In this document: piece by piece, positions 2,524 to 17,254 of the stretch
Layout: every line of letters starts with the position of its first letter
Position numbering within the stretch: position 1 is the stretch's first letter
Sequence record: DRR723986_4969
Strand: one strand, 5' to 3'
Length of the DNA stretch: 20,000 nucleotides
The notes under the pieces: generated by a model
What the model saw: only the letters and a program-made list of their open reading frames with translations
Databases searched by the model: none
What the model was told of the DNA's origin: nothing
Position numbers and translations under genes: made by a program

Positions 2524-2569
2524 ATCAGGCAATACGATTGACTTTATAGTTGTCATCGAATTTTTTGAT
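2524..2569. promoter_or_regulatory. Two LysR-type binding boxes (ATC-N9-GAT) in the divergent P450/LysR promoter region
   Basis: ATCaggcaatacGAT at 2524-2538 and ATCgaattttttGAT at 2555-2569, starts 31 bp apart; both satisfy the LTTR T-N11-A rule within an AT-rich spacer. Confidence 0.65.
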
Positions 2570-2618
2570 TTTACAAATCGTGGCGAGTGTTCTTGCCGGA
2601 TCCGGGAGGAAATTGCCG

Positions 2619-3557
2619 ATGCCGGGCGATCCGTTGGAAGTCGATTTTCGGGCGCTGCAGGTTCTGGTCTGGGTGCACCAGCTCCGTTCGTTCACGCGTG
2701 CGGCGGAAGAACTCGGCGTCAATCAGTCAGCGGTCAGCTACACGATCAACAAGCTGCGGGACGTGTTTCAGGATCCGCTGTTCGTCCGCCAGGCCCGTCG
2801 GCTCCACCCGACAAAACGCTGCGAAGATATCGTCCATCAGGCCAAACGGTTGACGGCCGAGTTCCGGCAACTGGTCGCTCCGCCGGATTTCGATCCGAAG
2901 ACGGCGGCGCAGACCTTCACCATTGCCTGCAACTTCTATGAACGCGTCCTGATCATTCCGGAAATCGTTCATTTTCTGAAGCGCGAAGCGCCCAACCTGG
3001 ACCTGGAGATCATCGATGCGTCGGGGATCGGTCACGAGCGGTTGCTGCGCAATGAGGCGGATCTCCTGCTTGGTCCGTTCGAACGGTCGGACCCGCATTT
3101 CTACAGGCGCGACCTCTATCAGGATCGCTACGTCTGCCTGCTCGATCCGGAGCATCCGAAAGCCGGAGCGGCACTGAGCCTGGACGATTATCTGGACCTC
3201 GACCACGTGCTCGTCACCTACGGCGGTCAATGGCGGTCGCGCTATATCATCGAGCTTGAGCGCATGAACAAGGACTTGAAAGTCGCCCTGCGCGTGCCGA
3301 GCCCGGCCGGGCTGGAGCGTCTGGTCGCGGGATCGAACCTCGTCGCCACGGTGCCGGAACGGCTGTCCAGATCAGTTGCGGATGGACTTCATGTGGTTCC
3401 CTGCCCGGTGGAAACGTCGGTCACGATCAGCCTCGTGTGGACCACGCTCAACCACCGCGCACCGCTGCACATGTGGGTGCGCGACATGGTCTACCGGCTG
3501 AACACACGAACCCGGAAGGCGGATGATCCGTCTTCCGGGCTGGGTATCTCGCGGTAA
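2619..3557 (+). CDS. LysR-family transcriptional regulator (NodD/NahR/DntR-like substrate domain)
   Basis: SFTRAAEELGVNQSAVSYTINKLRDVFQDPLFVR wHTH; C-terminal LTTR effector domain; ATG 2619 preceded by GGAGGA (preferred over the ORF-track start at 2550); divergent from the P450 operon. Confidence 0.93.
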   Translation: MPGDPLEVDFRALQVLVWVHQLRSFTRAAEELGVNQSAVSYTINKLRDVFQDPLFVRQARRLHPTKRCEDIVHQAKRLTAEFRQLVAPPDFDPKTAAQTFTIACNFYERVLIIPEIVHFLKREAPNLDLEIIDASGIGHERLLRNEADLLLGPFERSDPHFYRRDLYQDRYVCLLDPEHPKAGAALSLDDYLDLDHVLVTYGGQWRSRYIIELERMNKDLKVALRVPSPAGLERLVAGSNLVATVPERLSRSVADGLHVVPCPVETSVTISLVWTTLNHRAPLHMWVRDMVYRLNTRTRKADDPSSGLGISR

Positions 3558-3578
3558 CAGGCTTTCAGCCAGTTTCCG

Positions 3579-4682
3579 TCATGCGGGGTTCGGCCCGACG
3601 TAATGCGACGATGGCCGGATCAACTTTCCGGTTTCCTGCTGTTCCAGAACATGGGCGCACCAGCCCGGTGTCCGGCCGACGGCAAACAGCGGCGTGAACA
3701 GGGTCCGGTCGATGCCGATCGCGTCCAGCAGGACAGCGGTATAGAACTCCACGTTGGTTTCCAGCGGGCGGTCGGGCTTGGCGGTTTTCAGTGCCGCAAG
3801 CGCTGCCTGTTCGATCTCCTCCGCCAGACGCACTTTCGGGTTCTCAGGCCCAAGCAGGCGCAGCCCTGCCTTCAGGACGTCCGCGCGCGGATCCCTTGTC
3901 CTGTAGATCCGGTGACCGAAACCCATCAGCCGCTCCTTGCGTGCCAAGGCTTCGCCAATCCAGGCAGCTGCGTTTTCCGGACTGCCGATAGCATCGATCA
4001 TGTCCAGCACAGGGCCTGGCGCGCCGCCATGCAGCGGTCCGCTGAGGGCGCCCATCGCACCAAGAACGGCCTGTTTCAGGTTCGCCTGGGTCGAGCCGAT
4101 CACGCGCGCCGTGAAGGTGGAAGCATTCAGCCCGTGATCCAGGATTGTCACCAGATAGCGGTTGAGCGCGGCGGCATGGTCGGCAGGTGGCAGCTCGCCC
4201 GTCAGCATGCGCAGAAGATCGGTTGCGGTTTCCAGGGTGCTGTCCGGTGCGATCGGCGTCTGTCCCCTGGCAATCCGGTGAGAGGCGGCCAGAAAGACGG
4301 GCAATGCGCCGCTGATCGCAATCGCGTCGGGCAGGTCGGTGGACATCGGCAAGGCAGCCAGGCCCAGCTGCATGCGTTCATAAACGCCGAGGCTGGAAGG
4401 GGCAGCTTCAAGAACCGGCATGACGGCAAAGGCGACCCGCCGGGCTTCACCGAAAGCCTCACGCAGGGACGAGGCCTCAGGCATCTGGAAATCCTGCCAC
4501 AGATGCCGGACGGCCTCCTCGAAGCTCAGCTTGCCGGCCAGATCTTCGATATGGCGGCCATAGAGGATGAGGACACCCTTTTGGCCGTCGACATGGCTGA
4601 GCATGGTGGTGGCGGCAACAACGCCCTCCAAACCGGCAATCGGGTCCGGCGTCATCCGGGCGGGGTTCGGCGCTTCGGTCAT
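3579..4682 (-). CDS. Citrate synthase/methylcitrate synthase-family protein, Glu-variant active site (B. subtilis CS-I-like)
   Basis: GLEGVVA, DHGLNASTF, GPLHGGA, MGFGHRIY, DPRA, NVEFY, GRTPGW, LIRP; ATG 4682 with SD AAGGAG. Confidence 0.9.
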   Translation of the reverse strand: MTEAPNPARMTPDPIAGLEGVVAATTMLSHVDGQKGVLILYGRHIEDLAGKLSFEEAVRHLWQDFQMPEASSLREAFGEARRVAFAVMPVLEAAPSSLGVYERMQLGLAALPMSTDLPDAIAISGALPVFLAASHRIARGQTPIAPDSTLETATDLLRMLTGELPPADHAAALNRYLVTILDHGLNASTFTARVIGSTQANLKQAVLGAMGALSGPLHGGAPGPVLDMIDAIGSPENAAAWIGEALARKERLMGFGHRIYRTRDPRADVLKAGLRLLGPENPKVRLAEEIEQAALAALKTAKPDRPLETNVEFYTAVLLDAIGIDRTLFTPLFAVGRTPGWCAHVLEQQETGKLIRPSSHYVGPNPA

Positions 4683-4723
4683 GGCTATCTCCTTTTCTTT
4701 CCCGGTCAGATAGAAAGAGAAGA

Positions 4724-4758
4724 TTGCATTGATCAATGTTGATAATTAAAATCAATGT
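4724..4758 (+). promoter_or_regulatory. Sigma70-type promoter for a leaderless HTH-citrate synthase mRNA, overlapped by a TTGAT/ATCAA repeat array (putative operator)
   Basis: TTGCAT (4724-4729)-N17-TAAAAT (4747-4752)-N6-ATG (4759), no SD; perfect palindrome CATTGATCAATG 4727-4738 and TTGAT-N7-ATCAA 4739-4755. Confidence 0.6.
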
Positions 4759-5928
4759 ATGAGCAAGCCGATCTACCTGTCCGCCCGTGAAGCCGCTGCC
4801 GAACTTGGTGTTCAGCCCGCGACTCTCTACGCCTACGTCAGCCGGGGGCTGATCAATTCCGTTGCCGGTCCGGGCAAGCAGCGCCGCTACGACGCGGTGG
4901 ATGTGCGCCGCATGAAAGGCCGCAAGGCTGCCGACGACTACTCCGGTGCTCGACCCTTGACCGGCGACCCGGTGCTGGAAACCGAACTGACGCTGATTTC
5001 GGAAGCCGGTCCGGTCTATCGTGGCCGACCGGCGGTCGATCTGGCGCAAACCTCCACGCTTGAAACCGTGGCCACCCTGCTCTGGGCGTCGCAGGAAGAC
5101 CCGTTTGCCGAAAGCGCTCCATTGCCCCCGCCCGACCTGCCGGAGGGACTTGCGCCTCTGGACCGGCTGATGGTCGCGCTTGCCGCCTGGCCGCTGCAGG
5201 ACAAGGCGGCCTACACCCAGGCACCCAAGCTTCTGCAAGTGAAAGGCGCTGCCCTGCTGCGCTACGCGGTTGCAGCTCTCCTTAACGCAGATCCGGTCGA
5301 CGTGCCGATCCACACGCAGATTGCCAATGCTTTCGGCGTGTCGTCTTCGGCGAAGAACGTGATCCGGGCGGCGCTGATCCTGTGTGCCGACCACGAGCTC
5401 AACACCAGTGCCTTCGCGACGCGCTGTGCTGCCTCCACCCGGGCACCCCTCCACGCAGCCCTTCTTTCCGGTCTGGGAGCCTTTGCCGGTCCGCGCCACG
5501 GTGCTGCATCCGACAGGACAACGGCATGGCTGTCCGGTGTCGGGCCGGACACCGATATAGAGACCCTGCTTTCGGACCGGTTGAGCCGGGGCGAGCCCCT
5601 GCCCGGCTTCGGTCACACGATCTACCGCGGGCCGGATCCGCGCGCCGCTTGCCTGCTCGACGTGCTTTACCGCAGCGAGCCCGCGCACCCCTTCGTCCAG
5701 CGCCTGCCGGGTTTGATTACGGTTGCGCGTGACCTGTTCGGCGAAGCGCCGAACATCGATCTTGCCCTTGCAGCCACACAAAAGACCTATGACCTGCCGA
5801 AGGACGCCGGCAAGATCATCTTCTGCGCTGCCCGCATGACCGGATGGATCGCTCATGCGCTGGAGCAATACGCGGCACCGGAACAGATCCGCCCGCGGGC
5901 CGCCTATGTTGGCGAGCGTCCGGAATAA
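4759..5928 (+). CDS. N-terminal HTH (MerR/excisionase-like) fused to a citrate synthase-like domain; probable transcriptional regulator
   Basis: YLSAREAAAELGVQPATLYAYVSRGLI...RRYDAVDV HTH, followed by DHELNTSAF, GPRHG, PGFGHTIY, DPRA, PNIDLAL, ARMTGWIAH, IRPRAAYVG. Confidence 0.88.
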   Translation: MSKPIYLSAREAAAELGVQPATLYAYVSRGLINSVAGPGKQRRYDAVDVRRMKGRKAADDYSGARPLTGDPVLETELTLISEAGPVYRGRPAVDLAQTSTLETVATLLWASQEDPFAESAPLPPPDLPEGLAPLDRLMVALAAWPLQDKAAYTQAPKLLQVKGAALLRYAVAALLNADPVDVPIHTQIANAFGVSSSAKNVIRAALILCADHELNTSAFATRCAASTRAPLHAALLSGLGAFAGPRHGAASDRTTAWLSGVGPDTDIETLLSDRLSRGEPLPGFGHTIYRGPDPRAACLLDVLYRSEPAHPFVQRLPGLITVARDLFGEAPNIDLALAATQKTYDLPKDAGKIIFCAARMTGWIAHALEQYAAPEQIRPRAAYVGERPE

Positions 5929-5986
5929 GCCTGGTCACTTTTGCGGGATGCTTGTATCGGGGCGTCTTTGCGACTACTTAAAACGG

Positions 5987-6094
5987 GCACCTTCGAGGTG
6001 CGTCCCATGGAGATTGGATGTCAGAGATTGCGTGAGCAGGCTCTCTGAAGATCAGAGAGCCTTGAATACATGAACCGGTGCCTTGGCGGGCGCC
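5987..6094 (+). other. Hairpin-rich intergenic/leader region upstream of rsgA
   Basis: GCACCT-tcg-AGGTGC (5987-6001); perfect 11-bp stem AGGCTCTCTGA-aga-TCAGAGAGCCT (6038-6062); GGTGCCT-tggc-GGGCGCC with G-U pairs (6077-6094). Confidence 0.4.
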
Positions 6095-6127
6095 CGATGA
6101 CGTGTGTTTAATTCACGAGACAATCCA

Positions 6128-7222
6128 ATGGTACGGAACTATTCCGACTTCTTTCCCGCACGCCCCGGAAACGATGGGCCGGACAAAAACACTTCACGGC
6201 TTCTTTCACTTGGCTGGCGGCCCTATTTTGCACAACAGATCAGCTCCGACGAGCTGACGGCAACACCGCCCGTCCGTGTTGTCGAGGTCCATCGAAACGC
6301 GCTTCACGTGGTCGGCGAAGGGCTGGACGAAGCGATCCTGCCTGTCAGGAACGCCACGGTAGGCGACTGGTTGCTGCTGGACCGCGCTCATCCGCCATCA
6401 AGCCGGGTGCTGGAGCGACAGAGCCTGCTCAAGCGTCGTGCACCTGGAACCGATCGACAGATCCAGCTGATCGCAGCCAACATCGACACGGTGTTCGTGG
6501 TGTCTTCCTGCAATCAGGACTTCAATATTGCCCGGCTGGAGCGGTACATCGCGCTTGCGTTTGAGGCCGGTATAGATCCGGTGATCGTCCTGACCAAGTC
6601 GGATCTGGCGAGCGATCCGGAAAACTATGTCGATCAGGCTCGGACGATTTCGAACTCGGTTCCGGTCGTGACGCTGGACGCGCGCGGCGATGAGCCGGGT
6701 TTGAAACTCGCGGCCTGGTGCAAGCCGGGCAAAACAGTTGCCTTCCTTGGCTCTTCGGGCGTCGGCAAGTCGACGCTAACCAACGCGCTTTCCGGCACCG
6801 AGGACATAGCCACGCAGGCTATTCGCGAAGACGACGCCAAGGGCCGTCACACGACGACCCACCGGCAACTTCACGTGGTTCCAGGCGGTTGTCTGGTGCT
6901 GGATACACCGGGCATGCGGGAACTGCAGCTGACGGATGTGGCAGCCGGGATCGATGATCTGTTCTCGGATCTGAACGAGCTGGCATCCCGTTGCCGCTTC
7001 ACTGACTGCCGGCACGAAACGGAGCCCGGTTGCGCCGTTCAGGCCGCGCTGGCGGACGGCACCCTGGAACCTGGCCGGCTGAACAGGTGGCGAAAGCTGA
7101 AGGCGGAAGAAGCCTTCAACTCTGCAAGTCTGGCGGAGCGCAGGTCCAAGGACCGGGCATTCGGCAAGATGGTCCGAAGCGTCATGAAGCAGAAGAAGCA
7201 GAAAACCTGGGGCCTGGAGTAG
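6128..7222 (+). CDS. rsgA: Ribosome small subunit-dependent GTPase A (circularly permuted GTPase)
   Basis: VGDW, LIAANID, G4 TKSD before G1 GSSGVGKST, GRHTTT, DTPGMREL, Zn finger CRFTDCRHETEPGC; start 6128 (ATG) or 6104 (GTG) uncertain. Confidence 0.95.
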   Translation: MVRNYSDFFPARPGNDGPDKNTSRLLSLGWRPYFAQQISSDELTATPPVRVVEVHRNALHVVGEGLDEAILPVRNATVGDWLLLDRAHPPSSRVLERQSLLKRRAPGTDRQIQLIAANIDTVFVVSSCNQDFNIARLERYIALAFEAGIDPVIVLTKSDLASDPENYVDQARTISNSVPVVTLDARGDEPGLKLAAWCKPGKTVAFLGSSGVGKSTLTNALSGTEDIATQAIREDDAKGRHTTTHRQLHVVPGGCLVLDTPGMRELQLTDVAAGIDDLFSDLNELASRCRFTDCRHETEPGCAVQAALADGTLEPGRLNRWRKLKAEEAFNSASLAERRSKDRAFGKMVRSVMKQKKQKTWGLE

Positions 7223-7800: not shown

Positions 7801-8646
7801 TCAAAGCCTTGTTTTCATGAAGGATTCGAAATCGGGGATTCCTTCCGGCATGGTTTCGGTCCTGTCGAAACAACCGAAGGTGCCGCCGTCTTTCATGTCT
7901 TCGGCAGCGGCAATGAAGGCGCGGTAGGCAAGTCGTGCCAGACCTGCCCCGATGGAGACGCGCGTAACGCCCATGTCGCCCAGTTCCTTGCGGGTCAGGT
8001 GGAAGTTCTTGCGCCCGGCCAGGACGTTCATCGGTGCTTTCACGGCGGCCAGAACAGCGGCAATCTGTTCCTTGTCCTTCAGCTCAGGTGCATAGACGCA
8101 ATCGGCACCTGCCTCTGCAAAAGCGTTCAGCCGCTTGATCGTTTCGTCAAGTTCATGCTGCGTCTGGACGGGTCCTTCACTGCGGGCAGTCAGAACGAAA
8201 TCCGGCGCCAGCCGGTTCTTGGCATCCACCGCCGCCTTGATCCGCTCCACCGCCAGCTCCAGATCGTAGTAGGGATGTTTCGGATCGGTTGTGTAATCCT
8301 CGATGGAGCAGCCGGCGAGGCCAACCTCGATCGCCCCCTTGACCGTTGCCGCCACATCGTCCGGGCTGTCGCCGAACCCGTTCTCCAGGTCACCGTTCAC
8401 CGGCACGCTGGTCGCGGCAATGATGTCGGCGGCATGTCCGAGCGCATCGTCGCGCGTGATCAGCCCTTCGGCATCCTTCACGCCTTGCGTCCAGGCATAT
8501 CCGGCGCTGGACGTGGCCATCGCGTCAAACCGCAACCCGTCCAGAATGCGGGCTGTGCCGATATCGAAGGGATTCGGCATCAGGAAAGCACGCCCTTTTT
8601 CGTGAAGAGCTTTGAAGGCGGCACGGCGTTTGGCTGCGGTCGGCAT
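7801..8646 (-). CDS. Isocitrate lyase/PEP mutase superfamily protein
   Basis: MPNPFDIGTAR, ATSSAG, VNGDLENGFG, AGCSIED, VLTARSE, AEAGADCVY, GVTRVSIG; no KKCGH/KRCGH loop. Confidence 0.9.
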   Translation of the reverse strand: MPTAAKRRAAFKALHEKGRAFLMPNPFDIGTARILDGLRFDAMATSSAGYAWTQGVKDAEGLITRDDALGHAADIIAATSVPVNGDLENGFGDSPDDVAATVKGAIEVGLAGCSIEDYTTDPKHPYYDLELAVERIKAAVDAKNRLAPDFVLTARSEGPVQTQHELDETIKRLNAFAEAGADCVYAPELKDKEQIAAVLAAVKAPMNVLAGRKNFHLTRKELGDMGVTRVSIGAGLARLAYRAFIAAAEDMKDGGTFGCFDRTETMPEGIPDFESFMKTRL

Positions 8647-11455: not shown

Positions 11456-12569
11456 TGTCGACATCACCGGCCGTGTCGGAAAGCTCGATCTTGAAGCCCG
11501 GTTCAACAGCCGTGGCGGGGTGACATCGCTTTTCGGCCAGTCGGGGGCCGGCAAGACAACGCTGACCAACATGATCGCCGGGCTGATCAAGCCGCTCAGC
11601 GGACATATCACCGTCAACGGCACGACCCTTTTCGACGCGAACAAGAATATCAACCTCTCGGTGCAGGCACGCAGGATCGGTCACGTCTTTCAGGATGCCC
11701 GGCTGTTTCCGCATCTCAGCGTTGCCTCGAACCTCACCTATGCGCGCTGGGCGGGTCGCAGGCCTGGGACCCGGGACATGGCCGAAGTGGTCGATCTGTT
11801 GGGGTTGGGCGGGCTCCTGGAGCGAAAGCCCGGAACTCTTTCCGGCGGCGAGAGGCAACGAGTGGCCATCGGGCGGGCGCTTCTGTCGGACCCGCGGCTC
11901 CTGATCATGGACGAGCCGCTGGCCAATCTCGATCAGGCGCGGCGAAACGACATTCTTCCGTATCTGGACCGTCTGTGCGTGGAAGCGGGAATTCCGATCC
12001 TCTATGTCAGCCATTCCATCGAGGAAGTGGCGCGCCTGTCCAACACGCTCGTGATCCTGTCGGATGGACGCACACCCGCCTTCGGACCGGTGGCCGACAT
12101 GCTCGCCCGGACCGATCTGGGCCGGGCAACCGGCCGTCACGAGGCCAGTGCGCTGCTGGAAGGCACCGTCACCAGATGTGACCCGGACTGGGGCCTGACC
12201 GATGTCGATATCGGCGGAGCCACACTGCAGATACCGGATATGGCAGCCGTGCCGGGCGATGCGGTGCGCCTGCGCATCCGGGCCAGGGATGTTGCCCTGG
12301 CAGTCAAACCGCCGGAAGGCCTGTCCATCCGCAATGCCTTCGCGGCGACAATCCGCAGTATTTCGAGTGAAAGCGGTCCCTATGCGGAAATCCTTTGCTC
12401 CGTCAGCGGACAGGTGCTGCGTGCCCGCATCACCCGCGCGTCCGTTGCCGACCTCGATCTCCACACAGGCAAGGACGTCACGGTTCTGATCAAGAGCGTT
12501 GCCATTGACCGGCGCCAGCGTGCACCGGCCCTGTCGGACACGGCTACCGGGGAGGATTTCGCTGGATAA
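11448..12569 (+). CDS. modC: Molybdate ABC transporter ATP-binding protein with C-terminal TOBE/Mop region
   Basis: Walker A GQSGAGKTT, FQDARLFPHL, LSGGERQRVAIGR, MDEP, YVSH, LSIRN...LIKSVA; overlaps modB stop by 8 nt. Confidence 0.95.
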   Translation: MLDVDITGRVGKLDLEARFNSRGGVTSLFGQSGAGKTTLTNMIAGLIKPLSGHITVNGTTLFDANKNINLSVQARRIGHVFQDARLFPHLSVASNLTYARWAGRRPGTRDMAEVVDLLGLGGLLERKPGTLSGGERQRVAIGRALLSDPRLLIMDEPLANLDQARRNDILPYLDRLCVEAGIPILYVSHSIEEVARLSNTLVILSDGRTPAFGPVADMLARTDLGRATGRHEASALLEGTVTRCDPDWGLTDVDIGGATLQIPDMAAVPGDAVRLRIRARDVALAVKPPEGLSIRNAFAATIRSISSESGPYAEILCSVSGQVLRARITRASVADLDLHTGKDVTVLIKSVAIDRRQRAPALSDTATGEDFAG

Positions 12570-12612
12570 GGCTCCCGCTTCACGCGGCGCGCGGCTTGTT
12601 TATACTGACGCG

Positions 12613-14409
12613 ATGTTGCGCAAGACCAAGCGCCGGACCTGGCGCAGGCTGAAGATCGGTATCGGAGCGGCGGCGATCCTGTCGACGGTCGCACTGATGT
12701 GGCTGACCGGGCTTGCCAGCTTGCGGATCACGCTTGCGGAGGTGGAAACCGGTGCGCGGGCCAATCTTGCGGTTCAGACAGCCGTTCTCGAAAGACTTCT
12801 CGACAAGTTCCGCCTGCTGTCGCCGCTGTTGGCACGCGGTCCGGATATCGGCCAGTTGCTGATGAGCACGGGCAGGTCTGGAGACCCTGGCATTGCCGCG
12901 ATCGCTGCCGGCATGTCGGGCGCGGAAGAGATATGGCTGATGGACAGGCAAGGCAATGTCGTGGTCTCCAGCCAGGATGGTGTGCCGACGGGCTCCTTCG
13001 GCGGGGCGGAACGCATCGGACATGCCTTCGAACAGGCCCTTCAGGGCCAGCTCGGCCGGCAGCTCATCCCCGGTACGCCAGAGGCCGCATCGAATTATGT
13101 TTTCGCCTCGCCGTTGCGCCGGGGCAGCTCCATCGTTGGCGTGATTGCCGTCCGGGTCAGTCTGGAAGACGTCGAGCAAGCCTGGGCACTCAGCAAGGAA
13201 CCGCTGGTCGCGCTGGATGGCAGCGGCCGGATTGTGGTCACCAACGTTCCCGCATGGCGCGGCAAGCGGATGGACGAGCTTTCTGTCGGCCGGGATATCG
13301 CCGACATGTCGGTGGCTGAGCGCATCGAGGTCCTGCTGCCGGCAACGCCGTCTCCCTATTATTACCTGCAATTGACGGAGAACTTGGCCGTTCTCGGCTG
13401 GCAGGTCAGAACGCTTGTGACGATCGAGGATGCCCGCCAGCGTTCCGGCTGGGCCATGCTGGTCGCGCTTCTGGTCTGTGTGATCGCCGCCGGAGGTATC
13501 GCCATCCTGATCGTCAGGCGGGAAGAATTCGTGCGCCAGGAACGACGCAACCGGGCGAGCGCGCTGCGCCTGGAGCGCCGTGTGCAATCACGGACTGCGG
13601 ATCTTCGCCGCACCAACGTCCTTCTGGAACAGGAAGTGCGCGAGCGCGAACAGGCTGAAGCCGATTTGCGTCTGGCCCAGGCCGAACTCGTGCAGGCAGC
13701 CAAGCTGGCAACGCTCGGCAGGATGTCTGCAGCTCTCAGTCACGAGTACAACCAGCCACTGGCAGCTATCCGTTCCGATGCCGAAGTGGCAGGCATGCTT
13801 ATCGAGCGGGGGCGTGCGGACGAGGCCCTCGGCAATCTCTCGCGGATCGAAGGCATGGTCAGCCGCATGGCCGAAATCGCCAAGACGCTGAAAGGCTTCA
13901 CGCGCAAGTCGGGCACCGACATCAAGCCGGTGTCCCTGCGCCAGGTGATCGACGAGGCAACGTTGCTGCTGCAGCCACATATCAAGCAGAGCAAGGTGCG
14001 TCTCGATCTGGCGCTGCCGACAGAGGATATCATCGTCAAGGGCGGGCGCATCCGCCTGGAGCAGGTGGTCATCAATCTCCTGTCCAACGCACTGGATGCT
14101 GTCAGCGGCAACGCCGCATTGCTTGCCATGCCCGAAGTGCGCCTGGAACTGAGGCAGGAAGGCAGCGAAGCGGTTCTGACCGTCAGTGACAATGGCACAG
14201 GCATCGATGCCGATGTGCTGCCACAGATCTTCGACCCGTTTTTCACGACCAAGGATGTCGGCGCCGGGCTCGGGCTGGGCTTGTCGATTGCCTACAAGAT
14301 CGTTCATGACTTTTCCGGATCGCTGAAAGCGGCGAATCGCGACGGTGGCGGTGCGGTGTTCACCATGCGCCTGCCGGTGGCCGATGAGCATGTCCTTGCA
14401 GCGGAATGA
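12613..14409 (+). CDS. dctB: C4-dicarboxylate sensor histidine kinase (DctB-type)
   Basis: Two TM segments flanking a Cache-like periplasmic region; ELVQAAKLATLGRMSAALSHEYNQPL H-box, NLLSNALDA, DNGTGI, FDPFFTTK, GLGLGLSI; start uncertain. Confidence 0.85.
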   Translation: MLRKTKRRTWRRLKIGIGAAAILSTVALMWLTGLASLRITLAEVETGARANLAVQTAVLERLLDKFRLLSPLLARGPDIGQLLMSTGRSGDPGIAAIAAGMSGAEEIWLMDRQGNVVVSSQDGVPTGSFGGAERIGHAFEQALQGQLGRQLIPGTPEAASNYVFASPLRRGSSIVGVIAVRVSLEDVEQAWALSKEPLVALDGSGRIVVTNVPAWRGKRMDELSVGRDIADMSVAERIEVLLPATPSPYYYLQLTENLAVLGWQVRTLVTIEDARQRSGWAMLVALLVCVIAAGGIAILIVRREEFVRQERRNRASALRLERRVQSRTADLRRTNVLLEQEVREREQAEADLRLAQAELVQAAKLATLGRMSAALSHEYNQPLAAIRSDAEVAGMLIERGRADEALGNLSRIEGMVSRMAEIAKTLKGFTRKSGTDIKPVSLRQVIDEATLLLQPHIKQSKVRLDLALPTEDIIVKGGRIRLEQVVINLLSNALDAVSGNAALLAMPEVRLELRQEGSEAVLTVSDNGTGIDADVLPQIFDPFFTTKDVGAGLGLGLSIAYKIVHDFSGSLKAANRDGGGAVFTMRLPVADEHVLAAE

Positions 14410-14425
14410 AATGAGATAGGCGTTA

Positions 14426-15760
14426 ATGGATCAGGCGACCGTCCTACTGATAGACGATGAAGCGGACCTGCGCGGCTCCTTGAGCCAGGGGCTGGAGTTG
14501 TCCGGCCAGGCGGTGTTTGCAACCGGTGAACCGGAAGAAGCCCTGGAACGGGTCAACCGCGGGTTCTACGGCGTGCTTGTTACAGATATTCGCATGCCCG
14601 GAACGGACGGGTTCCAGGTCATGAAGCGGGCCTTCGAGATCGATCCCGCCCTGCCCGTGGTGCTGATCACCGGCCATGGCGATGTGCCACTGGCGGTCGA
14701 GGCCATGCGCGCCGGTGCCTATGATTTCATGGAAAAGCCCTTTTCCGTTTCGCGCCTTGCCTCCGTGGTGGAACGCGCGCTCGACAAGCGCCGGCTGGTG
14801 CTGGAAAACCGCAAGCTGCGCGAGGAGCTGGCAGACCGAACGGGCCTGGAAAGCCGTCTCGTGGGGCGCACCGCCGCCATGGAACTGCTTCGCCGCAATG
14901 TCACGGCCCTGGCGGCAACCGATGCCGATGTGCTGATCCTGGGGGAGACCGGCTCCGGCAAGGAGGTGGTCGCCCGGGCACTGCATGACGAAGGACCCCG
15001 CAAGGAAAAGCCTTTCGTCGCCCTCAATTGCGGGGCGCTTCCCGCCGAAATCATCGAATCTGAACTCTTCGGCCACGAGAAGGGCGCCTTTACCGGTGCC
15101 AGCGGACAGCGCATCGGCAAGCTGGAACATGCCCATGGGGGCACCGTGTTTTTGGACGAAATCGAATCCATGCCGCTGGAACTGCAGGTCAAGCTGCTGC
15201 GCGTGATCGAGACCCGGACAATCGAACGGCTCGGCTCCAACAAGGCGATCGAACTGGATGTGCGCTTCATTGCGGCCACCAAGGAAGACCTTGAGGCTGC
15301 CGGCAAGGAAGGCCGGTTCCGGCTGGACCTGTTCTACCGGCTCAATGTCGTCAACGTTGCCATTCCACCGTTGCGCGACCGGCTGGAAGATATCCCTCTC
15401 TTGTTCCGGCATCTGGCGGTGGAAGCCCGGGCACGCTACCGGCGCGAGATCCCGGACATCAACGAGGAATATCTCGCCGAGCTGATGGCGCGGGACTGGC
15501 CGGGCAACGTCCGCGAGTTGCGCAATGTCGCCGACCGTTTCGTGCTCGGTGTCGAGCTGGTCAACGCGCCCAGCAGCGGGGCCGGATCCACCTTGTTCGA
15601 ACAGGTCGCGACATATGAACGGGCGTTGATCGTCGCCGAACTCAAGCGCAACGACGGTGCCATCAAGCCCACTTACGAGAACCTTGGGCTCTCGCGAAAG
15701 GCGCTCTACGAGAAGATGCGCAAATACGGTCTCGGCAAGGACGAAGCGCTTTCCGTCTGA
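14426..15760 (+). CDS. dctD: Sigma54-dependent response regulator (receiver-AAA+-Fis HTH)
   Basis: LIDDE, TDIRMPG, ITGHGDV, GETGSGKE, ESELFGHEKGAFTGA, FLDEIE, WPGNVREL, LGLSRKALYEKM. Confidence 0.9.
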   Translation: MDQATVLLIDDEADLRGSLSQGLELSGQAVFATGEPEEALERVNRGFYGVLVTDIRMPGTDGFQVMKRAFEIDPALPVVLITGHGDVPLAVEAMRAGAYDFMEKPFSVSRLASVVERALDKRRLVLENRKLREELADRTGLESRLVGRTAAMELLRRNVTALAATDADVLILGETGSGKEVVARALHDEGPRKEKPFVALNCGALPAEIIESELFGHEKGAFTGASGQRIGKLEHAHGGTVFLDEIESMPLELQVKLLRVIETRTIERLGSNKAIELDVRFIAATKEDLEAAGKEGRFRLDLFYRLNVVNVAIPPLRDRLEDIPLLFRHLAVEARARYRREIPDINEEYLAELMARDWPGNVRELRNVADRFVLGVELVNAPSSGAGSTLFEQVATYERALIVAELKRNDGAIKPTYENLGLSRKALYEKMRKYGLGKDEALSV

Positions 15761-16339: not shown

Positions 16340-17254
16340 ATGAGTGACGCTCCAGGCATCGATGTTTTCGAGACGGTACGCCCGAAGCTGATGGGGCTGG
16401 CCTATCGCATGCTCAGCTCCATGGCAGATGCCGAGGATGCGGTGCAGGACACATACCTGAAGTGGCAATCCACGGACCGTGCCGGCATCCTGAATCCGGA
16501 AGCATTCCTCACCACGGTCTGCACCAATTGCTGCCTGGACACTCTCAAGGCCGCTCACAGGAAACGGGTCGACTATGTCGGCCCGTGGATCCCCGAACCG
16601 CTTCAGTTCGAAAGTGGCTCGGACCCGGAGACCGACCTGGACAGGGCACAATCCCTGACGACGGCGTTCCTCCTGCTGCTGGAGCGCCTCAGCCCGAAGG
16701 AGCGCGCCGCCTACCTGCTGCGCGAGATCTTCGCAAAGCCGTATGACGAAGTTGCCGAAACTCTGGGGGTTACCGAACAGACCTGCCGCCAGTTGGTGTC
16801 CCGGGCAAGCAGACATGTGCAGGGTCCGACCTCCCGTTTTGTTCCTCCGGCCGATCATCAGGACCGGATCCTGTCTGCCTTTCTCACCGCTATTGAAACA
16901 GGGTCCACGGACCACCTGACGGGCCTTCTCGCCGAAACCGTACAACTCCAGTCCGATGGTGGCGGCAAGGCAACGGCCATGAGCCGGATCCTGGAAGGCG
17001 CGGACGAGGTCGCTCGCTACGCGGTTCTTATTCTTGGCCGCCTCTGGGAGCCCTGCCAGATCAAGATACTGGATCTGAACGGCACACGTGGCCTCGTCAT
17101 GTTCTACGGCGATGAGATCGTGACAGCCGTGATGTTCGCCTATGACGCCGATGGGCGGCTGGAGCGTATCTACAACATGCGCAATCCGGACAAGCTGGCA
17201 CGCCTGAAGGTAAAGCTGCGCCACGACCGGTCTTCAGGCGCTATCTGGCACTGA
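16340..17254 (+). CDS. ECF41 (SigJ-like) RNA polymerase sigma factor with C-terminal SnoaL-like extension
   Basis: LAYRMLSSMADAEDAVQD, linker YVGPWIPEP, LERLSPKERAAYLLREIF, SDGGGK, NPDKL signature. Confidence 0.92.
   Translation: MSDAPGIDVFETVRPKLMGLAYRMLSSMADAEDAVQDTYLKWQSTDRAGILNPEAFLTTVCTNCCLDTLKAAHRKRVDYVGPWIPEPLQFESGSDPETDLDRAQSLTTAFLLLLERLSPKERAAYLLREIFAKPYDEVAETLGVTEQTCRQLVSRASRHVQGPTSRFVPPADHQDRILSAFLTAIETGSTDHLTGLLAETVQLQSDGGGKATAMSRILEGADEVARYAVLILGRLWEPCQIKILDLNGTRGLVMFYGDEIVTAVMFAYDADGRLERIYNMRNPDKLARLKVKLRHDRSSGAIWH

Follow-up and report, generated by a model that had tools for sequence, protein, structure and literature searches.

The divergent gene pair at positions 3579–5928 of sequence record DRR723986_4969, a stretch of 20,000 nucleotides referred to here as the window, encodes a citrate synthase of the CitA type and, on the opposite strand, a protein in which a helix-turn-helix (HTH) domain is fused to a citrate synthase fold. 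Judged from its sequence and that of its relatives, the fusion is probably (at a probability of about 0.7) a local, autoregulated, metabolite-sensing one-component transcription factor. The observations that carry this reading are the domain architecture of the fusion, the conservation of its recognition helix and ligand pocket, an oriented DNA site that travels with the fusion gene and is unique per genome tested, and a set of partner genes centred on citrate.

The two genes lie head to head and are separated by an intergenic spacer of 76 bp (4683–4758), an arrangement reported in the initial annotation and borne out by the open reading frames (ORFs), their translations and the Pfam matches. 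The fusion gene, the presumed regulator, occupies 4759–5928 on the plus strand and encodes 389 amino acids. The minus-strand ORF spans 3579–4736, and its likely start is the ATG at 4682–4680, which yields a protein of 367 residues. The gene at 3579–4682 (minus strand) is the presumed regulated target and belongs to the CitA-type (PRK12350) citrate synthases. Its product matches Pfam Citrate_synt (PF00285) over the full length with 330.3 bits (cut-off 27) and scores above the cut-off of NCBIfam PRK12350 (NF009005), with 407.6 vs 332 bits. Among solved structures, the closest are citrate synthase 1 of B. subtilis (2c6x) and citrate synthase chains of M. tuberculosis (6wgy, 8gmf), with E-values of 2e-74 and 3e-66, and in the alignments the TNVEF motif is common to the minus-strand protein, 2c6x and 8gmf. 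The initial annotation had read the NVE of this protein, in place of NVD, as the mark of a variant enzyme. The motif is there, but the glutamate is found in 77/77 CitA-type partners collected and in the solved CitA chains 2c6x and 8gmf, so NVE is typical of the family.

The G+C content of the window is ~60–65%, and its DNA is near-identical to that of Roseibium aggregatum, in which the fusion protein (locus L001) is 98% identical to that of the window; the host genome of the gene pair is Roseibium-like. The nearest genome used for comparison (G001, 6.7 Mb), which has 58% of sampled words in common with the window, contains three citrate synthase genes, namely a type-I gene located elsewhere (472 bits) and this pair.

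Both halves of the fusion are recognized by profile searches, as the initial annotation had anticipated. Residues 6–53 match Pfam HTH_17 with 31.3 bits (cut-off 27) and MerR_1 with 29.8 bits (cut-off 21.6), and the score for Pfam MerR (PF00376) is 26.3 bits, under the cut-off of 28.2. Residues 68–380 match Citrate_synt with 186.2 bits, covering profile positions 3–357 of 357 (cut-off 27). The active-site motifs named in the initial annotation are all present in the translation, as DHE, GPRHG, GFGH, DPRA, NID, ARMTGW and IRPR. The fusion falls below all NCBIfam citrate synthase cut-offs, the best score being 139 vs 421.3 bits for TIGR01800, followed by 131 vs 332 bits for NF009005.

The AlphaFold2 model of the fusion has a mean predicted local distance difference test score (pLDDT) of 94.4. 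It shows helices at residues 9–16 and 20–28, a hairpin at 34–45, a helix at 46–60, a disordered linker at 61–68, and then the synthase fold. On this model, together with the Pfam and fold matches, residues 6–60 (4774–4938, plus strand) are assigned to a winged HTH of the MerR superfamily with the recognition helix TLYAYVSRG. Residues 61–68 (4939–4962, plus strand), with pLDDT <50 in the full-length model, appear to form a flexible linker, and residues 68–380 (4960–5898, plus strand) form the citrate-synthase-fold domain, the presumed ligand-sensing and dimerisation module. When the HTH is folded alone (residues 1–65), its best matches are SoxR, BldC, phage Xis, NmlR and CarH, with TMq values (TM-score normalised to the query) of 0.64–0.75 overall and of 0.65–0.72 for the DNA-bound domains of SoxR, BldC, Xis and NmlR; the Foldseek E-values of the isolated domain are no better than 0.004, a weakness explained by its short length. 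CarH likewise joins its HTH to a separate sensor module. The fusion differs from MerR-superfamily proteins in the arrangement of the half-sites in its putative operator and in its architecture, as the canonical coiled-coil dimerisation helix is absent from the model and helix 46–60 passes through the disordered linker straight into the synthase fold. No solved chain joins an HTH to the synthase fold, and the best structural matches span only about residues 192–386 of the fusion.

Judged from its sequence relatives, the HTH-citrate-synthase fusion belongs to a family that appears both large and old. When 1.84 billion cluster representatives were searched, 1084 proteins were found at E ≤1e-30, and most of the best 150 of these align from about residue 6 to the end, with the HTH included. 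Full-length matches extend to at least 150 clusters at 50% identity. In an alignment of 139 family representatives, 34–49% identical to the query, conservation is highest in the HTH: L16, Y24, S28 and R29 are present in 139/139, Y26 in 138, V27 in 135 and T22 in 131. The pocket is conserved to a similar degree, with H212, R222, R295, R378 and R380 in 139/139, R359 in 138 and H247 in 136; D293 of the same domain is also among the residues assessed for conservation. By motif correspondence, these histidines and arginines represent the oxaloacetate/citrate-binding set, and their conservation makes oxaloacetate, citrate or an acid resembling them the candidate ligand. One representative of 792 residues (P0123) aligns to the query in two stretches and may be a tandem or doubled fusion. 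When a profile of the HTH was run against 301 sampled genomes of the window's class, it gave one match each in 27 (27/256 high-quality genomes, 23/254 genera), the unpublished G246 among the positives, and the matches lie mostly in open frames of ~390–500 amino acids (range 338–705). The database names of the relatives are 'citrate/2-methylcitrate synthase' or 'citrate synthase family protein', as the initial annotation had foreseen. Its statement that no functional characterisation was known also holds for the literature searched, where neither an HTH-citrate-synthase protein nor a citrate-synthase-fold regulator was found.

The spacer between the two genes contains an oriented composite site, here proposed as the operator, with the core TCAAT-G-TTGAT-AATTAAA-ATCAA at 4733–4755 on the plus strand. 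The core, in general form TCAAT-n-TTGAT-N7-ATCAA, starts 26 nt before the fusion ATG and ends 3 nt before it. In Roseibium the putative operator is extended upstream by a perfect 12-bp palindrome, CATTGATCAATG (4727–4738), which is conserved in Roseibium-like spacers.

The recurrence of the site was followed in 75 loci found by protein similarity, one genome per species; in 74 of these the sequence reaches 160 nt or more upstream of the fusion gene. The core, counted when it had at most 2 mismatches of 15 within −150 to +10 of the fusion start, lies upstream of the fusion in 60/74 loci and always in the same orientation, against a background of 8 matches over the remaining 904,332 nt of these loci. 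Before the last half-site, the proteobacterial loci that were read have a gap of N7, and most of those from Chloroflexota have N6. A scan of the same collection on DNA only, with the 17-base pattern GTCAAT-n-TTGAT-N6/7-ATCAAT, produced at least 120 stretches, 80 of which were turned into loci. Among the 80 loci listed, 49 have a fusion gene directly downstream in the expected orientation, at a distance from the site of at most 65 nt in 48 and of 301 nt in one. A CitA-type synthase is divergent on the other side in 39 of these 49 listed loci, in agreement with the conserved pairing that the initial annotation had predicted. Twelve of the 31 listed loci without an adjacent fusion were inspected, and in 10 of them the motif is within a long ORF, so these are likely to be chance matches; the other two, L124 and L103, are described below. 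Another locus (L152) is truncated at the site and has a CitA-type gene next to it.

In each of G001, G002 (the chromosome of a Caulobacter sp.) and G006 (a genome from the Ktedonobacteria), the 15-base core has a single match, which is at this locus. The strict core has no match in the Corallococcus genome G004. In Pseudovibrio G003, a 16-mer allowing at most 2 mismatches gives 12 matches at 11 places, and the sole exact one is at the fusion gene. By their titles, the fusion-positive records come from Alpha-, Beta- and Gammaproteobacteria, Chloroflexota, Actinomycetota, Myxococcota, Acidobacteriota and Eremiobacterota-like groups, and further from Latescibacterota, Poribacteria, Spirochaetaceae, Sericytochromatia and Desulfuromonadaceae, at least 10 phylum-level groups in all. 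The oriented site thus travels with the fusion gene across many phyla.

A few sites are placed differently. In the Caballeronia locus L124, the site (1620–1644) is ~2.9 kb upstream of the fusion gene (4514–5641) and sits between a divergent 2-hydroxyacid dehydrogenase gene and an operon-like row of a short-chain dehydrogenase/reductase (SDR) gene, a major facilitator superfamily (MFS) gene and the fusion gene; this arrangement hints at a subfamily that has another regulon and may respond to another ligand. An exact match at L103:7394–7417, in an AT-rich spacer of a contig with 64% G+C, is 40 nt upstream of a gene for an FAD-dependent oxidoreductase (DAO). There is no fusion gene within this 8-kb locus, and the site could be a distant regulon member or a chance match.

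The half-site letters TTGAT and ATCAA are common to the putative operator and to FNR/CRP-type boxes, which have the form TTGAT-N4-ATCAA, but the spacing differs. An FNR/CRP box was rejected on account of the N6/N7 spacing and the everted TCAAT-n-TTGAT, and no N4 arrangement is present in 4720–4758. The spacer also contains an inverted repeat, CTTTTCTTTC / GAAAGAGAAG, at 4692–4701 / 4713–4722, with 90% complementarity and an 11-nt loop, which adjoins the ribosome-binding site of the synthase gene. This repeat is not conserved in the Roseibium spacers, and its 5' arm is upstream of the presumed transcription start of the synthase gene.

Across 29 distinct Roseibium-like spacers, the pattern TTGC.TTGATCAA..TTGA.A..TA.AATCAA is at least 90% conserved, CTCCT is found in all and a CAGATAG block in most. 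The conserved CTCCT block corresponds to the Shine-Dalgarno sequence of the CitA-type gene, AGGAGA at 4688–4693 on the minus strand. Reading by eye and the conservation in these spacers point to a fusion promoter at 4724–4752 on the plus strand, composed of TTGCAT (4724–4729), a 17-nt spacer and TAAAAT (4747–4752). The distance from TAAAAT to the fusion ATG is 6 nt, which leaves no space for a ribosome-binding site, so the fusion mRNA is probably leaderless. The candidate −35 element of the CitA-type promoter, TTGATC at 4731–4736 on the minus strand, is within the palindrome, and a candidate −10 element, CTATCT at 4708–4713 on the same strand, follows 17 nt from it and coincides with the CAGATAG block. 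Transcription of the CitA-type gene would then start near 4701.

The genes that face the fusion in other lineages provide the strongest functional clue. The CitA-type synthase is the commonest divergent partner. Two loci (L117, L135) have a type-I-like citrate synthase instead (448 bits), and six (L041, L045, L057, L063, L068, L138) have an HMGL-like partner that is 68–81% identical across Chloroflexota and Actinomycetota (e.g. L045:1550–2980, minus strand). The HMGL-like partner scores far below every curated cut-off for homocitrate, isopropylmalate and citramalate synthases, and the automatic JGI names of its relatives are 'citrate (Re)-synthase', '2-phosphinomethylmalic acid synthase' and 'isopropylmalate/homocitrate/citramalate synthase'. 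In the Bradyrhizobium locus L046 (fusion at 2525–3724) the partner is a CitMHS citrate transporter. Other partners are a family-III CoA-transferase (L070, L089), a D-2-hydroxyacid dehydrogenase (L124, L146), an aminotransferase (L048), a cupin (L127), a methyltransferase (L131) and a glyoxalase-family gene (L139). The partners thus converge on the synthesis or transport of citrate-like acids, through proteins of three unrelated folds. The initial annotation had proposed a self-contained sensor/target module in which the fusion controls its paralogue. The module itself is supported by the size of the family, the invariance of the helix, the travelling site, its uniqueness in three genomes and the conserved pairing with a CitA-type synthase; the part that does not hold throughout is the paralogy, as the partner is not always a paralogue.

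Whether the synthase-fold body senses or catalyzes can be addressed through the residues it has kept and lost. H212, H286 and D334, which we take to be the equivalents of the textbook catalytic His/His/Asp triad, are present in 139, 135 and 131 of the 139 representatives, and all three are kept in the window's protein. The situation differs at the positions that presumably contact the CoA phosphates, as mapped from the pig enzyme. In the 77 CitA-type partners, the residue after the GFGH histidine (His+1) is Arg in 77/77, His+4 is Arg or Lys in 76/77, and seven residues before the catalytic acid (position −7) there is an Arg in 75/77. In the fusions, His+4 is Pro in 113/139 and Arg in only 8/139, and the commonest residues at position −7 are T, L, I, A and G. 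Triad members are also replaced in some fusions: that of L046 has H286Q and D334H with the Arg/His pocket kept, L057 has H286P and D334E, and L045, L063 and L068 have D334E. Such replacements fit sensing better than obligatory catalysis.

Data from Caulobacter are relevant here. C. crescentus has adjacent citB and citC genes (CCNA_03757/03758), and according to the available passages of Berge et al. (eLife 2020, PMC7083601), these encode extra citrate synthase paralogues beside the type-I CitA; CitB complements E. coli gltA and CitC fails to do so. In those passages CitC is treated only as a non-complementing paralogue, with no regulatory role or operator proposed, and the terms 'helix-turn-helix' and 'HTH' are absent from the text. 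Four Caulobacter sp. loci (L108, L133, L137, L145) contain the operator-centred divergent pair, and in a Caulobacter sp. genome the complement of citrate synthase genes is three, one of type I and the pair. On the synteny with these loci and this genome, CitB is presumably the CitA-type partner, and CitC of C. crescentus the HTH fusion. The CitB/CitC paralogues would then correspond to the pair in the window, with pair and site shared by the Caulobacter sp. loci, and a regulatory role of CitC is, relative to the available passages, proposed only here. The lost basic residues, the lost triad members and the CitC data together make a ligand sensor whose CoA site has decayed more likely than an efficient synthase.

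In the mechanism proposed here, the citrate-synthase-fold body would serve as a ligand-sensing and dimerising module, with a dimer as in all citrate synthases, tethered to the N-terminal MerR-type winged HTH by the flexible linker of ~8 residues. The HTHs are predicted to bind the composite site at 4733–4755, extended upstream by the palindrome at 4727–4738. This site would overlap the spacer and the −10 element of the fusion's own promoter as well as the −35 element of the CitA-type promoter, so that its occupancy would most simply repress both genes; activation is the alternative sign of regulation. Binding of a di- or tricarboxylate to the conserved oxaloacetate/citrate pocket could drive the open-to-closed domain movement typical of this fold, which would alter the presentation of the HTHs to DNA and in this way tune the expression of the auxiliary citrate synthase. 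An acyl-CoA may contribute as well. The scheme is predicted in several of its elements, namely the binding to DNA, the sign of regulation, both promoters, the ligand and the route of allostery.

A more elaborate version, which is offered tentatively and at a low probability, combines a coincidence detector for entry into the tricarboxylic acid (TCA) cycle with an ancient, widespread 'citrate homeostat' whose target genes are swapped. As a coincidence detector, the protein would follow the ordered mechanism of the enzyme, in which oxaloacetate closes the domains and creates the second site, and release of the three-half-site operator would require the closed dimer with both ligands, or the product, bound. 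As a homeostat, the head and the operator would have been kept for a long time and the target exchanged among an Si-type CitA/GltA, a Re-type synthase of the HMGL fold and the CitMHS transporter.

An unlikely alternative is that the fusion is a trigger enzyme. It would still catalyse a Claisen condensation or a lyase reaction, for instance as a citrate synthase, a 2-methylcitrate synthase or a citryl-CoA lyase, and its DNA-binding head would couple its catalytic state to transcription, in the manner of PutA or BirA. This alternative overlaps with the regulator and differs from it only in requiring catalysis. The near-universal triad keeps this explanation alive, the Citrate_synt profile is covered in full, the window's protein has Arg at His+4, and within Roseibium the fusion is about as conserved as its enzyme partner (87% vs 83% in L004, 80% vs 76% in L007). 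On the other hand, most family members are without the basic residues found invariantly in the enzyme partners, several lack H286 or D334, and all NCBIfam citrate synthase scores are far under their cut-offs. CitC, if it is the fusion as synteny indicates, did not complement gltA in the available passages of PMC7083601, and CitB did.

The two other explanations are each very improbable. The fusion might act at the protein level by forming heterodimers with the CitA-type synthase, thereby tethering the enzyme to DNA or titrating it, as both proteins have the dimer-forming citrate synthase fold and are encoded side by side in the 39 of 49 loci mentioned above. However, the two are only ~30–34% identical over the C-terminal half, the partner is not of the citrate synthase fold in many lineages, and no CitA-type gene is present anywhere in the genomes of Pseudovibrio and Corallococcus; since the partners have three unrelated folds, a general mechanism that needs a paralogue heterodimer is disfavoured. 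Alternatively, the fusion could be an ordinary isozyme whose N-terminal domain is vestigial or unrelated, some other factor being bound to the site. The plain database names and the subthreshold PF00376 score are in line with this, but no part of the family is better conserved than the HTH, and the site is found once per genome tested, only beside the fusion gene and in many phyla, so that any other binder must be co-inherited with the fusion.

The reading of the fusion as an autoregulated transcription factor has to be weighed against several observations that speak against it. The full site is missing in 14 of the 74 loci (ten Pseudovibrio, two Pseudomonas, and L074 and L075), and the Pseudovibrio loci retain only a shorter palindrome, ATGATCAATGTTGATCAT. 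The loci are phylogenetically clustered (~30 Roseibium, ~13 Corallococcus), so the counts overstate their independence. In whole genomes of Pseudovibrio and Corallococcus the only citrate synthase genes are the type-I gene and the fusion, which leaves these genomes with no CitA-type target. A pure sensor would not obviously need the catalytic triad, which is largely kept, and the window's own fusion retains Arg at His+4. The identity of CitC with the fusion comes from synteny, and the available passages of PMC7083601 are silent on an HTH. A promoter and terminator scan of 3400–6200 gave no promoter-like (sigma-70-like) site, the promoters described above having been read by eye, and one terminator-like site, fewer than in shuffled sequence. 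A search of public RNA runs gave 23, each with at most 47% of the sampled words; four were compared with 3400–6100, and three of them cover this whole interval with contigs of 8–20 kb. All four consist of assembled contigs and as such are uninformative on transcription, strand or starts.

The neighbours of the pair have no obvious pathway in common with the two genes. Upstream are a gene for a TRAP (tripartite ATP-independent periplasmic) solute-binding protein, a P450-like ORF and a LysR gene, and downstream are genes for an RsgA GTPase, a GNAT acetyltransferase and a protein of the phosphoenolpyruvate (PEP)-mutase/isocitrate-lyase family. The LysR-family gene (2550–3557, plus strand) is convergent with the CitA-type synthase gene, with the stop codons 21 nt apart, and in Pseudovibrio a LysR gene is directly 3' of the fusion gene. 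The citA gene of B. subtilis is controlled by the divergent LysR-type regulator CitR, and on this ground a second layer of control by the LysR gene is possible in the window; there, the divergent position is taken by the HTH-citrate-synthase fusion and the LysR gene is convergent. The PEP-mutase/isocitrate-lyase-superfamily gene (7801–8646, minus strand; 247 bits) is 1.9 kb downstream of the fusion, and this superfamily includes 2-methylisocitrate lyases and oxaloacetate decarboxylases. Further along the window, a tandem sensor histidine kinase and sigma-54-dependent response regulator (12499–15760, plus strand) are followed by a gene for an ECF-type (extracytoplasmic function) sigma factor (16340–17254, plus strand).

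Enzyme folds are reused as sensors or trigger enzymes in MocR/GabR, ROK repressors, PutA and BirA. The pair described here would follow the same logic, in which an enzyme fold is joined to a DNA-binding domain in an autoregulated protein, often with a divergent metabolic gene. It differs from these systems in its putative operator, which is an oriented three-half-site element and not a simple dyad. At MerR-activated promoters the dyad operator is within a spacer of 19–20 nt. The site of the window would lie between the putative −35 and −10 elements of the fusion promoter, whose spacer, as read by eye, is 17 nt.

If the proposed function is correct, the fusions would constitute a new, widespread family of bacterial transcription factors that use the fold of a central-metabolism enzyme as sensor. 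They would explain the presence of 'three citrate synthases' in many bacteria, one of which, CitC in Caulobacter, was without synthase function in complementation. The operator and its regulator would form a defined pair responsive to a metabolite at the entry of the TCA cycle, usable as a biosensor, and the exchange of partner genes would be a natural case of the non-homologous replacement of a regulated enzyme under one conserved regulator.

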